From Bacteroidaceae bacterium (GTDB taxonomy: Bacteria > Bacteroidota > Bacteroidia > Bacteroidales > Bacteroidaceae): a stretch of DNA of 39,192 bases. Where the stretch lies: contig JAILIJ010000046.1 in assembly GCA_024695315.1 (NCBI GenBank), positions 1-39,192 on the forward strand, given 5' to 3'. The translations under genes and the position numbers were made by a program. Of the stretch, positions 1,646-36,354 are shown piece after piece (position 1 is the stretch's first letter; every line of letters begins with the position of its first letter). The notes below the pieces were generated by a model. That model worked only from the letters and a program-made list of their open reading frames with translations, ran no database searches and was not told where the DNA came from.

Positions 1646-1716
1646 GCTTTTTGATATGAATGTATTTTTATAGAAAGTATATTCTACAACTTACTCAATT
1701 TCATATTTGATAAATA

Positions 1717-1752
1717 AAATCCTCAAAGCGTTATGCTCTGAGGATTTTTTAT
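1717..1752 (+). terminator. intrinsic terminator after the GH51 gene
   Basis: AAATCCTCA (1717-1725) pairs with TGAGGATTT (1739-1747), followed by a T-run. Confidence 0.7.
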
Positions 1753-1874
1753 TGTTCCTGTCTGCTAAACATATTTTTAAGCAGGAATAATTGGTATAAA
1801 AACGTTCATTTTGCATAGGTTATTTAGGAGTATGATGTTGTACTCTGAGGGAAAAAACTCCAGAAGGAGCTATA

Positions 1875-1920
1875 TTTTTAAAAATAAGTCCGCAATACCT
1901 TGTTTATTGGTACTGCGGAC
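1875..1920 (-). terminator. intrinsic terminator after dacB-like gene
   Basis: GTCCGCAATACC / GGTACTGCGGAC hairpin (1888-1920, one mismatch). On the minus strand it is followed by TTATTTTTAAAAA. Confidence 0.6.
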
Positions 1921-1966
1921 TCATAATTTGTTGCTTTATGGTTTCTGACGACAATATTTTCTATTC

Positions 1967-3379
1967 TTATTTGACCATTTCTCGGCAAACCCTATCCTGG
2001 AAGTCTCGTGCATTCCATACGGGTGTGTCTTTCTGTATGATGGCAAAAGCATACCAATGACCATTTATGCCGTGTGCATATCCTGCAAGAGAAGATGTAC
2101 CAGTAGTCACGATTGTACCTGTTTTGCAAAAGATACGTCCTTTAGTATATCCGTATGACATTCTTTTCTTGAGTGAACCGGTGCGGTTGATGAGTCCTGG
2201 GCTTGCTAACCCTTCGCTGATTAAGATGTCGCGTATATCTTCTTTATTGTATGCCCAAAGAAGTAATTGTACAAGAAAGTCAGATGTGAGTCTGTTTTCT
2301 GGTGACAATCCGCTTCCGTCGTTGATGACAAATCCTTCTGATTTTGTGTCTATACCCATTTCCTCCATCAAGAACTTTTCAACTTCATGAGGAGACTTTC
2401 CGTATTGGCTGTGCGATTGCCATAGTCCTCCATAAACATTATCGAGATGGTAGAATATGCTTTCTGCCTTTATGTTGCTGCTATAGATAAGCATAGGAGC
2501 GAGCACCTTTATAAGTGGTGTCTGGGAGGAGATAATACACTCGGCATTGTTTGTTAACTGGTCGAGGGCAATTCTTCTCATCATGTGATTTAAGTCGAAA
2601 GAAGGGTCTCCGAAGTGTTCTTGTGCCACTTTTGTCCAGTATTCGTTTAGATTTGGATCTTTGAGTGTGAACTGCTCTTCTTTGACTTTTATGCCTTTAT
2701 TTGCGAGTGTCTGTATGAAATTACGTTTAATGAATTTCTCCCCTTTGAGAAGTAGTGGCAATTTGAAGTATTTTATGTCCCATGGCTTGTCTGTTGGATG
2801 TGGACGTAAAGTGTCTCTTCTAGCCAAATTCATTATTATATTTCCCTCAATACGTTTGATGCCCTTTTCCTTAACAGCTTTTGCCCATTGATTGAAGTCC
2901 ATAAACAAAGGGTTGTCGTCCATCTTTAGGATTAAAGACCCGTTGAGAGTTCCGTTCTCGTCAATAGTTCCGTTCATGAATAGGGAGTCGCAAAATTCGT
3001 AGTTTTCTCCCAAACGGTCAATGGCAGTTATGGCAGTAAGCAGTTTCATACATGATGCAGGCGCCATGAGCATCTGGTCATTATGATTATAGATGTATGT
3101 GCCTGTTGATATGTCGTATATGCTTATTGCGGTATTGTCATGTGTTATTCCTCTTCTAAAAGTTGTTAAGAGTTTGTCTATACTCTGTTGCATGTGCATA
3201 TCGTGATGGAAGATATATGCAGCAGAGTCAGACTTGTCTTTTGTAGCGTTTTGTATTAAGGTTGGTACCTCATTCTTGTTCTCAATTGTTTCTGTTTTGT
3301 CCGTTTTGCCAGGTTTAATAGGTCCTGACTTCCATATTGCTAATAGTGATAAAAATAGTAGATACGTTAGATGTCTCAT
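1967..3379 (-). CDS. dacB: D-alanyl-D-alanine carboxypeptidase/endopeptidase (PBP4, peptidase S13 type)
   Basis: N-terminal signal sequence and three motifs in PBP4 order: SxxK (SCMK), DGSGLSPEN and KTG (CKTGT). Size is 470 aa. Confidence 0.8.
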   Translation of the reverse strand: MRHLTYLLFLSLLAIWKSGPIKPGKTDKTETIENKNEVPTLIQNATKDKSDSAAYIFHHDMHMQQSIDKLLTTFRRGITHDNTAISIYDISTGTYIYNHNDQMLMAPASCMKLLTAITAIDRLGENYEFCDSLFMNGTIDENGTLNGSLILKMDDNPLFMDFNQWAKAVKEKGIKRIEGNIIMNLARRDTLRPHPTDKPWDIKYFKLPLLLKGEKFIKRNFIQTLANKGIKVKEEQFTLKDPNLNEYWTKVAQEHFGDPSFDLNHMMRRIALDQLTNNAECIISSQTPLIKVLAPMLIYSSNIKAESIFYHLDNVYGGLWQSHSQYGKSPHEVEKFLMEEMGIDTKSEGFVINDGSGLSPENRLTSDFLVQLLLWAYNKEDIRDILISEGLASPGLINRTGSLKKRMSYGYTKGRIFCKTGTIVTTGTSSLAGYAHGINGHWYAFAIIQKDTPVWNARDFQDRVCREMVK

Positions 3380-7342: not shown

Positions 7343-8374
7343 ATGGATATTGCTATAGGATTACTTATCATAGCTATTGGCGCATTTTGCCAAAGTTCAT
7401 GTTATGTGCCTATTAACAAGATAAAGGATTGGAGCTGGGAGAGCTACTGGATTATCCAGGGAGTCTTTGCTTGGCTCCTCCTTCCTTTCTTGGGAGCACT
7501 TCTTGCTGTACCTGAAGGGCATTCGCTCTTTGAACTTTTTGCAGGTGCAGATGCGTTTAATATTTGGATGACAATACTCTTTGGAGTGTTATGGGGTGTT
7601 GGTGGACTTACTTTCGGTTTGTCTATGCGTTACCTCGGAGTTGCTTTGGGACAGTCTATCGCACTTGGTACATGTGCTGGTCTTGGAACTGTTATGGGAC
7701 CTATATTCCTTAATTTCTTCTTTCCAGAAGACGATCCGTTGTCTCAGCTTACTTCTTCGGTACTTATTGGAGTGGCAGTAACTCTTATTGGTATTGCTAT
7801 CATTGGATTTGCTGGTTCTTTAAAGTCCGCTTCATTATCAGAGGAGGAGAATAAAGAAGCTGTTAAGGATTTTGATTTTACTAAGGGATTGGCTATTGCT
7901 TTGCTTGCTGGTTTCATGAGTGGATGTTTTAATGTGGGACTCGCTTTTGGTGAAGATATAAAGTTGCCAGATTCTAATCCTATGTTTGCCACTCTTCCTG
8001 CTACTTTGCTCGTAACTTTGGGTGGCTTTGTGACAAATGCAGTATACTGTTTCTACCAAAATCATGTTAATGGTACGTGGGGCGATTATAAGAAGAAGTC
8101 TGTATGGACCAATAACTTGATATTCTGCCTTATTGCAGGTGCACTCTGGTATAGTCAGTTTTTCGGACTCTCTTTAGGAAAGGGTTTTCTCACAGAATCA
8201 CCAGTGCTCATGACATTTGCATTCTGTATTCTCATGGCATTGAATGTGACATTCTCTAATGTCTGGGGAATTATTCTTGACGAGTGGAAAGGATGCTCAA
8301 AGAAAACTATTACTGTTCTTGTGATAGGATTGTTGATACTTATTATTTCAACTTTCCTCCCTCAATTACTATAA
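7343..8374 (+). CDS. rhaT: L-rhamnose/H+ symporter
   Basis: About 10 TM segments. KIKDWSWESYW matches the RhaT N-terminal signature (KVKKWSWETMW in E. coli). It starts 4 nt after the rhaA stop. Confidence 0.9.
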   Translation: MDIAIGLLIIAIGAFCQSSCYVPINKIKDWSWESYWIIQGVFAWLLLPFLGALLAVPEGHSLFELFAGADAFNIWMTILFGVLWGVGGLTFGLSMRYLGVALGQSIALGTCAGLGTVMGPIFLNFFFPEDDPLSQLTSSVLIGVAVTLIGIAIIGFAGSLKSASLSEEENKEAVKDFDFTKGLAIALLAGFMSGCFNVGLAFGEDIKLPDSNPMFATLPATLLVTLGGFVTNAVYCFYQNHVNGTWGDYKKKSVWTNNLIFCLIAGALWYSQFFGLSLGKGFLTESPVLMTFAFCILMALNVTFSNVWGIILDEWKGCSKKTITVLVIGLLILIISTFLPQLL

Positions 8375-9292: not shown

Positions 9293-9428
9293 TTTTAAAT
9301 GTCCTTTTTTTTGTGTGTAATTGTTCTTTATAAGTGTATTTTTGTCCTTTTTGTTTTGCTATTTTATAAAAAGTGTTAGATAAATGTAAAAAATACATTC
9401 AAAATATTGTGGTAATCTTATTTTTTCA

Positions 9429-9436
9429 TATCTTTG
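9429..9436 (+). promoter_or_regulatory. orphan -7 box (TATCTTTG) with no CDS downstream
   Basis: TAnnTTTG match, with a TTG about 18 nt upstream. The nearest downstream plus-strand signal is the terminator at 9569-9603. Confidence 0.4.
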
Positions 9437-9442
9437 CAATAA

Positions 9443-9603
9443 ATTATGAAGATAAATATTCATATATATATTATGCTATTGGACACATCCTCGAGGATTT
9501 ATCTAAGAGGAAAAGAGTCGTGAGGCTCTGGTCCACCCCAATAGAAATATTTAACATTTCACCTGATTATTCCTGCGCCGAGAGGTGCGGGAATAGTTTT
9601 TTT
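9443..9603 (+). ncRNA. candidate ~160-nt small RNA (promoter-to-terminator unit), family unknown
   Basis: It is bounded by the -7 box at 9429-9436 and the terminator hairpin at 9569-9594 plus a T-run. It contains the palindrome ATCCTCGAGGAT. No convincing ORF is present; the best is 25 aa. Confidence 0.3.
9569..9603 (+). terminator. strand-specific intrinsic terminator
   Basis: ATTCCTGCGCC-GAGA-GGTGCGGGAAT has two G.U wobble pairs that exist only in the plus-strand RNA, followed by AGTTTTTTT. Confidence 0.6.
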
Positions 9604-9813
9604 ATGTATATAAGGCTCAATGGTGGCAGTAGATATTTATCTGCTCAGTGGATTTTTTAGATAATTTGGAACTTTTGCTTATTCTTTTATATTATGTGCA
9701 CTAAAACTTTGTCTCTTTTGCGTACTTTCATGCAGAACAATTTATTCAATGAAGCAGAAAAATTTCTTTATTCCTACTGGGCAATTCTATGCCTATTGTG
9801 AAACAATTCATAA

Positions 9814-9891
9814 AATCACAGCGTGGTACGGTCGTACCACGGCGTGGTATGATTATACCACGGTGCGGTACGACTGTACCACAGCGTGATT
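9814..9891 (-). repeat. 11-nt phased hairpin array (GTGGTAC/GTACCAC words) inside copy A
   Basis: Seven 11-nt units form three tandem 7-bp hairpins with 4-nt loops (GTGGTAC-GGTC-GTACCAC, GTGGTAT-GATT-ATACCAC, GCGGTAC-GACT-GTACCAC). The outer 16-nt arms are 9814-9829 and 9876-9891. Confidence 0.8.
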
Positions 9892-10030
9892 TTGAAAATT
9901 TCTCTTGAATAATAGAACTATTTCTGCTGAGCATTATAATAAATTATGCGCTCAAATTAAAGAATTATTCAGCATTAAAAGTCGCATCACTGCTTACATC
10001 TAAAAATGACAACAGATCTTGTCTGCTTAA

Positions 10031-10093
10031 TCACCGTTTGAACATCGTTTGAGCACCGTTTGAATACCGCTCAAACACTGCTCAAGTACCGCC
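10031..10093. repeat. 11-bp phased CGTTTGA / TCAAAC word array (copy A)
   Basis: tcaCCGTTTGAacatCGTTTGAgcacCGTTTGAataccgCTCAAACactgCTCAAGtaccgcc has three forward and two reverse words. Confidence 0.75.
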
Positions 10094-10145
10094 AAAAAAT
10101 TGTATTGTCTTTTTTAAAAAATAATGTTTACTCCAAAAGAAAAAT

Positions 10146-10203
10146 GGCGTTCAATTACCATTCAATCATCGTTTGAGTAATGTTTGAACTGTAATTGAAC
10201 GCC
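10146..10203. repeat. 11-bp phased TTCAAT/GTTTGA array closed by a 13-bp inverted repeat
   Basis: GGCGTTCAATTAC (10146-10158) is the perfect reverse complement of GTAATTGAACGCC (10191-10203). The interior is phased as cattcaatcat/cgtttgagtaa/tgtttgaactg. Confidence 0.75.
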
Positions 10204-10344
10204 ACTTGTGTGTACGCATGTTCTCTCTAGATATTTAAAAAATTATCTATCACTTTTCGCAGTCTCAACGCTTGCCGTAGGCTTGATGAAACACACCAAA
10301 CTGAATGTTTTGCAGCATGACTAATTATGCGAAATTTGAAGGAT

Positions 10345-16292: not shown

Positions 16293-16525
16293 TCCTTCGT
16301 ATCGATTTTTTTGAAATGTTAAAAAGTGTGTTAAATCTTGTAAAAGATAGGAAAAATAGGCATTATTGTCATGTTTTTACTACCTTAGAACATTCATCTG
16401 ACGAGTCGCGTCTATCTCCGATTCCAACTGGGGGTGAGCTAAAATTTCAAATGTACGAAATCGATACTCATCAGCAATGGAATACGAATGTGATACGAAG
16501 GAGATACGAAGCGTTGTCGAAGGAG
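16293..16525 (+). repeat. TACGAAGG-word element (family shared with 30393-30526)
   Basis: CGAA recurs at 16485, 16496, 16507 and 16518, an exact 11-nt spacing (aataCGAAtgtgataCGAAggagataCGAAgcgttgtCGAAgg). TCCTTCGTATC (16293-16303) is the perfect reverse complement of GATACGAAGGA (16492-16502). Confidence 0.75.
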
Positions 16526-29401: not shown

Positions 29402-29423
29402 CATATCACAATCTATATGTTTA

Positions 29424-29535
29424 GGCTGTGTTTGAGCAATGCTTGAATGGTGCTCAAGCACAGCTTAAATAAGTTCAATCGTTTAATGTTTGTTTAACGG
29501 CCATTAAATGTTCGTTTAATGGATGTTAAATGTTT
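29424..29535. repeat. ~11-bp phased TTGA/TCAA/TTAA word array (10 units)
   Basis: Word cores start at 29432, 29443, 29454, 29465, 29475 and at 29483, 29494, 29504, 29516, 29526. Nested inverted repeats: CTGTGTTTGAGC/GCTCAAGCACAG (11 of 12, with the mismatch a G.U on the plus strand), TGCTTGA/TCAAGCA, CCATTAAA/TTTAATGG. Confidence 0.75.
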
Positions 29536-29650: not shown

Positions 29651-29986
29651 TTATTTTTGTGCTTCGCTGATGAGCCAGCGTATATAGTCCTCAGAAACGT
29701 TGTCAATTTCGTTTTTGTCATAGATGGTAAGTAGCGTGATTTGAGCATCGTCACTTACCAAGATATTTAGCGTCAGTACGCGAGCACCTCCGCTTTTACC
29801 TTTTCCCTTAGAGGCAATAGACATGCGAATCTTACGTACACCACTACCAAGATCTGTACCTTGAAAAGGATTTTCTTTTAATTCCCTTTGCAGGTTTTCT
29901 AGGTCGTCAGTCAGAGAACGATATTTCTTCTTTAGTTGTCTGAACTGACGTTTGAACTCGTCGTGTACATGTAGCGTTACGTTCAT
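29651..29986 (-). CDS. type II toxin, RelE/HigB (Gp49-like) superfamily
   Basis: 111 aa. VRKIRMSIASKGKGKSGGARVLT resembles the K.R....GKSGG.R motif of RelE/HigB-like toxins. It has a 4-nt ATGA overlap with the upstream small gene. Confidence 0.65.
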   Translation of the reverse strand: MNVTLHVHDEFKRQFRQLKKKYRSLTDDLENLQRELKENPFQGTDLGSGVRKIRMSIASKGKGKSGGARVLTLNILVSDDAQITLLTIYDKNEIDNVSEDYIRWLISEAQK

Positions 29987-30237
29987 ACATTCTCCTCCAT
30001 TCTAAGTTCATAGATAAAATCATCAACTGTTTGTAACTTGCGTCCTTCTTTTTTTGCGCGTTTCACTTCGTCGAGAGCACGAGTTAGCGTTTCTTTCACG
30101 TAGGCTTTTTGGCGTTCAGTCTCAGCGTCGTCAACCTTTGACTCTAAGAGTTTGTTGGCAAGCCATTCGCGATCTTTCTTTTTTAGGGACAGACTATCAA
30201 TATACGTCCACAGATTTTCCAATGCTAATGCTGTCAT
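29983..30237 (-). CDS. putative cognate antitoxin (helical, no recognisable DNA-binding motif)
   Basis: 84 aa from the ATG at 30237 (MTALALENLW...), chosen because a -7 box lies at 30267-30274. The ORF is open to 30288. It is charged and helical, and coupled to the toxin gene. Confidence 0.5.
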   Translation of the reverse strand: MTALALENLWTYIDSLSLKKKDREWLANKLLESKVDDAETERQKAYVKETLTRALDEVKRAKKEGRKLQTVDDFIYELRMEENV

Positions 30238-30266
30238 AATCTTATAATTTGATTGTTTTATATCTG

Positions 30267-30274
30267 CAAAGATA
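30267..30274 (-). promoter_or_regulatory. -7 box (TATCTTTG) for the toxin-antitoxin pair
   Basis: The reverse complement of CAAAGATA matches TAnnTTTG, 30 nt upstream of the ATG at 30237. Confidence 0.55.
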
Positions 30275-30392
30275 AATTGTAATCTCAAGAAAACAAAATA
30301 TATGTTTAACTTTTTTGAAATCAGAAAATAATTATGGCTATGCTATTGGACTTTTAGTTTTTGTCTTATAGGCATATTTTAAGATGGATAAG

Positions 30393-30526
30393 TTGTCAAT
30401 TTGTAAGTTCTCCTTCGGACGCCACTTTCCTTTTGATAATTGACATTTCACGAAAAAGTTACGAAGGTAATACGAAGGAGAATAAAAGGTAATACGAAGC
30501 GTCTCGGAGTAACATTTTGTCAATTT
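30393..30526 (+). repeat. TACGAAGG-word element (family shared with 16293-16525)
   Basis: gtTACGAAGGtaaTACGAAGGagaATAAAAGGtaaTACGAAGCgtcTCGGAG, with CGAA at 30462, 30473 and 30495 (11-nt grid). TTCTCCTTCG (30408-30417) is the reverse complement of CGAAGGAGAA (30473-30482). TGTCAATT occurs at 30394 and 30518, with an inverted AATTGACA at 30438. Confidence 0.75.
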
Positions 30527-35818: not shown

Positions 35819-35902
35819 TGTTTTTTGTGACATTCAATATTTATTTTTTTATGTCTTATTATGTAAAAGTGTAAAAATAGTGTTCAAACACCGTTTTGAG
35901 CG

Positions 35903-35935
35903 GTGTTTGAGCAGTGTTTGAGCAGTGTTTGAGCA
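35903..35935 (+). repeat. three perfect tandem copies of GTGTTTGAGCA
   Basis: Copies at 35903-35913, 35914-35924 and 35925-35935, preceded by the 9-bp hairpin CAAACACCG-TTTTGAG-CGGTGTTTG (35885-35909). Confidence 0.9.
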
Positions 35936-36079
35936 GGTTAAATTTATTGAAAAATGTATGTTGGTTCTTAGAAGTAAGCTGTGATGGGGCATTTAATGCT
36001 GGATATTTCTTTCATTCGAGCGCAAAAAATTTTGTAAAGTTCAGCAAGAATAGTTCTATTATTTAGGATGAATTTCACG

Positions 36080-36157
36080 AATCATTCAATGGTACGGTCG
36101 TATACCTAAATGTTACAGTCATACCATTGAATAGTACACCCGTACCATTGAATGATT
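36080..36157 (+). repeat. 11-nt phased hairpin array inside copy B, closed by a perfect 16-bp inverted repeat
   Basis: AATCATTCAATGGTAC (36080-36095) is the exact reverse complement of GTACCATTGAATGATT (36142-36157). The interior is 46 nt, the same length as in copy A. Confidence 0.85.
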
Positions 36158-36354
36158 TTAAGAATTTTTTCGCAATAGGCATAGAATCGCCCAGTAGGAA
36201 TGAAGAAATTTTCCTGCTTTGATGAATAAAATATTCAGCATTATGGTTTCGCTAAAGGGGGAAGGTTTTAGCGTATGTAAAAAAAATATTGCATCAAACC
36301 AATAGCTTGATGTTCGGCTACTTTCGTGAAGGTTGAAGTGTTATTGATATTTGT

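Follow-up and report, generated by a model that had tools for sequence, protein, structure and literature searches.

The window analysed here is a contig of 39,192 nt from an uncultured, rumen-type member of the Bacteroidales; among named organisms, those nearest to it are MAGs of Bacteroidaceae and Prevotella. It contains two copies of an intergenic element, each represented by a 250-nt domain. Copy A (9728..9977, minus strand; arms 9963-9977 and 9728-9742) is found beyond the stop codon of a wHTH gene (10345), and copy B (35994..36243, plus strand; arms 35994-36008 and 36229-36243) is found beyond a TPR regulator gene. Both copies are placed directly after terminator-like hairpins and in the orientation opposite to that of the upstream gene. 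The region that follows the TPR gene contains, in order, copy B, an ECF sigma/anti-sigma/TonB_C cluster, a GH31 gene, a RelE pair and a GH95 gene. The RelE pair (29651-30288, minus strand) consists of a RelE-like toxin (111 aa, PF06296) and an overlapping upstream ORF of 101 aa, and is likely to be a toxin-antitoxin pair. Near copy A, a 95-aa ORF (9373-9660, plus strand) is without a Pfam match and probably does not represent a gene; it holds a strong plus-strand terminator (9565-9598) with a 15-bp stem followed by TTTTT. The idea that A and B delimit a composite transposon was considered and rejected, since the intervening 26 kb consists of ordinary chromosomal genes (rhamnogalacturonan and fucose/glucoside hydrolases, and regulators) and contains no transposase. 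In fact, the entire 39-kb window contains no transposase or recombinase gene.

The domain is made up of several modules, which were delimited by repeat searching, direct reading and alignment. Its centre is a tandem array with a period of 21 nt. In copy B, the array comprises about 3.5 units of CATTSAATGGTAC-NNNC-GTAC (36080..36157, plus strand), the outer parts of which form a 16-bp stem (36080-36095 with 36142-36157); in copy A, it comprises 3.5 units of CACGCYGTGGTAC-NNYC-GTAC (9812..9893, minus strand). Written out in full, the repeat reads CACGCYGTG-GTAC-NNYC-GTAC (copy A) or CATTSAATG-GTAC-NNNC-GTAC (copy B). Because every unit is a palindrome, adjacent units pair together, and this produces what the initial annotation described as a 16-bp stem with a hairpin array. 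For the copy A array, GGTAC-N4-GTACC sites are enriched, with three found against 0.34 expected. The array is flanked by two conserved boxes. Box 1, AATAGTTCTATTATT, is located at 36049..36063 (plus strand) in copy B and at 9908-9922 (minus strand) in copy A, as identified by both the A/B alignment and the dyad alignment. Box 2, CGCAATAGGCATAGAATYGCCCAGTAGGAAT...GAATAAA, is located at 36171..36230 (plus strand) in copy B and at 9741-9800 (minus strand) in copy A. Box 1 mirrors the start of box 2 (TTCTAT..TATT against AATA(GGC)ATAGAA), and the two are partly complementary; the arms of the domain thus bear AATAG/CTATT boxes in mirrored positions.

Further modules lie outside the domain. On its 3' side, a small hairpin, CGCTAAA...TTTAGCG, is conserved between the copies (36251..36272, plus strand, in B; about 9700-9721, minus strand, in A). 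On its upstream side there is an array of 11-nt iterons, in which GTGTTTGAGCA and its complement constitute the motif common to both copies. Copy B has four to five units of GTGTTTGAGCA (35882..35935, plus strand), and copy A has TTTGAGC and GTTCAAAC half-sites in both orientations (10030..10098, minus strand). Folding of these iterons gives hairpins whose stability is greater in the proposed sense orientation than in the other (-31.2 versus -15.0 kcal/mol in B, -24.8 versus -14.7 kcal/mol in A). On the minus strand, the iteron region of copy B also forms a hairpin followed by a T-run (35910-35884).

Phased 11-nt repeats are also present elsewhere in the window. A third array of TTTGAGC-type iterons (29417-29535) forms a hairpin of -30.5 kcal/mol directly after the GH95 stop codon and continues into phased GTTTAAYG repeats; it is about 70-76% identical to the iterons of copy A, and has no foldback domain. 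Another family of phased 11-nt repeats, ATACGAAGG, occurs at 16476-16525 and 30453-30502, both intergenic, and the latter region (30390-30520) has the inverted repeats CTCCTTCGGACGC / GCGTCTCGGAG on either side.

The initial annotation had proposed that a long-range helix closes the domain in both copies. Re-reading the coordinates of copy B, we found that TAATGCTGGATATT (35994-36007) and AATATTCAGCATTA (36230-36243) form 13 Watson-Crick pairs and one G.U exactly as described, and that the contiguous run extends to 15 bp once the next T-A is counted. A check of copy A by hand (minus sense, 9963-9977 with 9728-9742) likewise gave 12 Watson-Crick pairs and one G.U, with mismatches at two positions (T.T and A.G), as had been counted. 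Minimum free energy (MFE) folding by RNAfold returned the helix in both copies, and RNAalifold kept it in the consensus; in both copies it encloses the AATAGTTCTATTATT box, the 16-bp stem with the hairpin array, and the CAATAGGCATAGAAT..CCCAGTAGGAAT box. Relative to dinucleotide shuffles, the MFE folds of the two copies have z-scores of -7.1 and -9.4. A contiguous long-range helix of at least 15 bp appeared in 2 of 150 dinucleotide shuffles of copy B, and the interrupted helix of copy A alone is not significant against shuffles. Between the copies, the helix differs by one compensatory double change and two wobble changes, and it is broken at two positions in A. On its own, then, the closing helix is modest evidence.

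The solid signal is the dyad symmetry of the entire domain, rather than the helix alone. When each 250-nt domain was globally aligned with its own reverse complement, 168 of the 250 positions matched in A and 160 in B. The alignment scores (140 in A, 116 in B) lie approximately 8-10 sd above the shuffles (means of -28 and -18, sd about 17), and blastn agrees. Similarly, a profile constructed from A and B with nhmmer matched each copy on its opposite strand across some 260 nt (E = 3e-22 and 1e-15). Each copy is thus a 250-bp imperfect DNA palindrome (quasi-palindrome), and the reported helix is its terminal inverted repeat, that is, the outer and best-kept end of the palindrome. The arms of this repeat are 14-16 bp long, and terminal inverted repeats are a feature of miniature transposable elements with inverted repeats (MITEs). 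The dinucleotides that flank the helix are TA..TA in B and TA..GA in A, which is trivial and gives no convincing target-site duplication. A 9-nt direct repeat, TATGTAAAA, found at 35858 and 36271, is specific to copy B.

Copies A and B can be aligned without gaps over 286 columns, with 188 identities among the 250 positions of the domain (75%). The count of 53 identical positions among the 60 of the CGCAATAGGC...GAATAAA box was reproduced on recounting. The homology continues for about 120 nt upstream of the helix, through the iterons and a small hairpin, and for about 45 nt downstream. Since it passes the helix on both sides, the helix is not the boundary of the repeated unit, which is about 320-420 nt long and hence longer than the helix-bounded domain. 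For the same reason, the true ends of the element are uncertain. Box 2 is better kept than its mirror partner; this asymmetry hints at some one-sided constraint on the sequence, which the foldback-repeat model favoured below does not explain. A scan of the window allowing mismatches for further arms or boxes returned A and B only, and so the number of copies within the 39 kb is two.

A palindrome of this extent has a direct bearing on how the helix should be read, because an origin at the DNA level accounts for it equally well. One way to separate the alternatives is the wobble test: a G.T mismatch is tolerated in the sense RNA, while A.C is tolerated only in the antisense RNA. In the dyad, the ratio of G.T to A.C mismatches is 8:7 in A and 10:10 in B, so that strand bias is absent. 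The RNAalifold consensus energies of the two strands are also close to each other (sense -57.8, antisense -54.7 kcal/mol), the single-sequence values being -93.5 versus -91.6 for A and -84.6 versus -73.6 for B. In addition, we took the Watson-Crick dyad pairs of one copy and recorded what each had become in the other, a procedure that is free of predicted structure. Among the pairs defined in B outside the array, 14 are changed in A (one compensated, one G.T, four A.C, and eight other mismatches); among those defined in A, 10 are changed in B (one compensated, four G.T, two A.C, and three other mismatches). The sole compensated pair outside the array is an A-U/U-A swap within the closing helix. 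Outside the array, then, these two sequences, a comparison of low power, do not display the compensatory pairing expected of a non-coding RNA. RNAalifold does report ten double changes, one in the closing helix and most in the array. In the array, all units of a copy are changed together (CACGCYGTG in A versus CATTSAATG in B), which indicates concerted evolution or re-amplification. Together with the transcription signals described next, these patterns fit an old DNA palindrome that has been decaying independently in the two copies, and do not fit an RNA whose structure is selected on one strand.

The element is small and non-coding, as MITEs are: its ORFs are short, and none is common to A and B. 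The possibility that box 2 encodes a small protein was rejected, since it has five non-synonymous changes against one synonymous change and copy B interrupts the reading frame; a protein search with a 62-aa frame of the element gave no match. As the initial annotation had noted, there is no Bacteroidota promoter upstream, the TAnnTTTG box being missing from the sense strand of either copy. The box is also absent from both strands inside either domain, and its only exact occurrence nearby (35818, minus strand) serves the gene for the sigma factor; this promoter scan led us to reject a promoter inside the element or pointing out of it. Neither copy has a hairpin with a U-tract after the domain that could be its own terminator. 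The suggestion that copy A is a long 3' UTR of the wHTH gene is not supported, because a strong terminator-like hairpin predicted by folding (10131..10207, minus strand; 28-nt arms, -32.8 kcal/mol, 10207-10142, then ATTTTTCTTTT) sits between the wHTH stop codon and copy A. Copy B has no upstream gene on the same strand, and is antisense to the TPR gene preceding it. It is flanked on both sides by minus-strand terminator-like hairpins, and the TPR gene has its own terminator at 36312-36292. Two other candidates were also discarded: a dif/Xer-like site at GAGCGCATAAT..., since the resemblance to dif is found in A and is absent in B, and a retron-like msr/msd, since there is no reverse transcriptase gene.

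Further copies were sought in several collections. The whole window had no family match in Rfam at the gathering threshold, and with an E-value threshold both copies gave only sub-threshold matches of the miRNA hairpin type. A blastn search with copy B against plasmids and phages found nothing similar. Exact box-2 patterns were found neither in viral contigs (IMG/VR) nor in GTDB genomes, for which one genome per species was scanned (185,579 species). In JGI metagenomes, box 2 had four chance matches in coding-like DNA, none of them with another box. When the viral contigs and GTDB were scanned with degenerate back-translations (IGIE[LS]PSRN and one further pattern), 230 and 390 pattern matches came up, none of which was confirmed. 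Finally, an nhmmer search of about 35-36 loci of TPR and wHTH orthologues found no copy of the element.

The sites themselves were also compared in related strains. Six contigs are 94% identical to the window at the nucleotide level over the TPR gene, and a seventh, L002, is 85% identical at the amino acid level. The homology to the six contigs (L031-L036) ends 9-11 nt past the TPR stop codon (window 36344-36346). These and L002 lack the element behind the TPR gene, and their whole downstream region differs; in the six, LiaF-like and GH95 genes come next. The segment absent from the relatives includes the RelE-like pair. No clean empty site was found: the relatives differ by a larger rearrangement that begins 9-11 nt after the TPR stop codon.

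At the site of copy B, all seven related contigs carry another element (element Y, located downstream of the TPR/DUF6377 gene), whose sequence is unrelated to that of the window's element (X). For example, it lies at 7000-7288 in L031, 2407-2686 in L035, about 3803-4021 in L036, and 1666-2273 (reverse strand) in L002. Element Y is also a foldback, with self-complementarity about 5 sd above shuffles, built around a 21-nt palindromic minisatellite with TTTGAAC/GTTCAAA half-sites. The number of units is four in L031 and L035 and one in L036 and L002. An extra insertion of about 400 nt is present in L031 (7289-7690) and L002 and absent from L035 and L036; in L031 it contains 36-nt inverted repeats (7349-7384 and 7489-7524), and a 6-nt TTTTTT overlap at its borders resembles a target-site duplication. 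At the other site, the DNA downstream of the wHTH orthologues is unrelated in 22 contigs. In L009-L030, at about 1830-2790, the wHTH (HTH_34) gene and an upstream gene of about 215 aa form a pair that is conserved across many rumen Prevotella-like contigs, and the variable DNA downstream of it often carries defence genes (AbiTii-TIR, HipA, DUF4143 ATPase). From the differing downstream DNA in the relatives, we infer that these intergenic sites turn over rapidly and are hot spots occupied by repeats of the foldback and minisatellite types.

We consider that A and B are best read as copies of a lineage-specific, non-coding foldback repeat, MITE-like and of the BrickBuilt or BIME kind, and give this reading a probability of about 50%. 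According to this model, an ancestral element with nearly perfect arms would have been copied into intergenic DNA directly behind terminators, probably by a transposase or recombinase supplied in trans that would read the terminal repeat and the subterminal boxes; alternatively, a mosaic repeat might have been duplicated. Since then, A and B would have drifted to 75% identity while the dyad decayed, with the terminal repeat and the array stem best kept. Read-through RNA would form a long hairpin in either orientation and could serve as a barrier or stabiliser; such a hairpin would be a by-product, and not a strand-specific RNA structure under selection. The weak points of the foldback-repeat model are that only two copies are known, that these are old (75% identity), and that they have no convincing target-site duplication; the homology that runs past the helix, the lack of a transposase or recombinase gene in the window, the missing clean empty site and the asymmetry of box 2 also count against it. 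Membership in the MITEs is partial, consisting of the terminal inverted repeats, the non-coding sequence, and the internal tandem repeat. In its favour, MITEs typically have a distribution as narrow as that seen for the element in the collections searched.

Three alternatives assign the dyad a different role, and the least improbable of them, which we nevertheless regard as doubtful, is that the element is non-mobile, resident double-stranded DNA that serves as the platform of a DNA-binding protein (in the manner of operator, centromere-like or recombination accessory sites), in which the outer inverted repeat reflects a symmetric layout. The periods of 11 and 21 bp correspond to one and two helical turns, the dyad is strand-symmetric, and the GGTAC-N4-GTACC palindromes are enriched; moreover, similar TTTGAGC arrays occur without the domain (29417-29481), and a TTTGAAC-type 21-nt array occupies the same site in the relatives. 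However, no candidate binder is linked to both copies, the neighbours being the wHTH gene for A and the ECF sigma factor and TPR regulator genes for B, and the repeat units of A and B are unlike in sequence, which would make it hard for a single protein to read both. The change from one to four units between close strains in the sister family Y also suggests slippage rather than a tuned operator array. That the element is a structured non-coding RNA of about 300 nt (an sRNA or a 3' UTR domain), in which the helix closes a multi-helix domain and the boxes are single-stranded or protein-binding, is unlikely. The very stable folds, the presence of the helix in both copies and the consensus, the ten double-change pairs, the asymmetric conservation of box 2, and the greater stability of the iteron hairpins on the proposed sense strand would all agree with it, but the transcription unit is undefined, having neither promoter nor terminator; a strong terminator lies ahead of copy A, and copy B is antisense to its upstream gene. 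The mismatches are unbiased, the consensus energies of the two strands are similar, the changed pairs outside the array are mostly broken, the double changes lie chiefly in tandem units and are accounted for by concerted change, and neither Rfam nor any collection searched contains a homologue. The geometry and the missing upstream promoter reported in the initial annotation stand, and folding recovers the helix, whereas the interpretation as a conserved structured RNA or 3' UTR is not supported by the tests applied.

An inverton, in which a site-specific recombinase flips the 222-bp segment between the 14-bp inverted repeats in the way of the phase-variable promoters of Bacteroidales, is very improbable. 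The geometry does fit, with short inverted repeats separated by about 220 bp within intergenic DNA of a Bacteroidales genome; however, the segment has no TAnnTTTG on either strand, the window has no recombinase gene, A and B are in the same phase, and the interior is itself palindromic, so that flipping would change little. A broader and more speculative proposal, which we consider quite unlikely, is that X and Y represent an undescribed class in rumen Bacteroidales: foldback modules of helically phased palindromic units (21-nt units with 10.5-11-nt half-sites, such as TTTGARC and GGTAC), used by a dedicated protein, or through their own RNA or single-stranded DNA hairpins, in the service of the host, for example to insulate convergent genes or to seed hot spots of recombination, with the closing helix and box 2 under selection.

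If the foldback-repeat model is true, the element would be another lineage-restricted foldback repeat, and its significance would be chiefly that of a caution. Decaying DNA palindromes and tandem palindromic units automatically yield very negative z-scores and a few "compensatory" pairs, and these are not to be counted as evidence of structured RNA. In addition, the DNA behind the TPR regulator gene and the wHTH operon would be sites of fast turnover, at which repeats and gene sets swap between strains at 94% identity. This would be relevant to the assembly of rumen Bacteroidales genomes and to understanding their rearrangement.

Several known systems resemble the window's element in part. Bacteroidales invertons likewise have short, intergenic inverted repeats separated by about 200 bp, but the element has no internal promoter or nearby recombinase and its interior is palindromic. 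Correia elements, which are MITEs of Neisseria, are foldbacks of 100-250 bp with terminal inverted repeats and possible TA duplication; they are inserted near genes, and the transcribed hairpin can alter mRNA fate. However, their terminal inverted repeats are 26 bp long, they exist in hundreds of copies, and they have known promoter and RNase III effects, none of which is shown for the window's element. The ERIC/IRU elements and BIMEs (REP mosaics) of Enterobacteria are, like the present element, imperfect palindromes in intergenic and often 3'-flanking positions, mosaics of short modules whose transcripts fold in either orientation. They belong to another phylum and differ in sequence, and ERIC is about 127 bp long and lacks an internal minisatellite; REPs are mobilised by RAYT transposases, whereas there is no evidence of a RAYT with the window's element.

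BrickBuilt of Porphyromonas gingivalis consists of a leader and a tail that enclose a 23-nt minisatellite, with short terminal inverted repeats and long predicted stem-loops (PMC4596501). It has flanking terminators and no Rfam match, and is confined to P. gingivalis plus the sister species, P. gulae (PMC4596501). There is no sequence similarity between BrickBuilt and the present element, the terminal inverted repeat being TAATGCTGGATATT here and GAGACCTTTGCA (IS5-like) there (Table 2, PMC4596501). Furthermore, the number of repeat units is not variable here, the array having 3.5 units and equal length in both copies; the entire element is palindromic, and an external array of 11-nt iterons is attached. 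Like the BrickBuilt / MITEPgRS MITEs, the element belongs to the Bacteroidales, is strictly intergenic and non-coding, forms predicted stem-loops, and is often beside Rho-independent terminators. As in BrickBuilt, a leader, a dyad-symmetric tandem repeat of about 21-23 nt, and a tail are combined with short terminal inverted repeats, the 3.5 units of 21 nt lying here between the box-1 and box-2 arms; both lack an Rfam match, and both are restricted to one species or lineage. BrickBuilt is the closest published analogue of the window's element.
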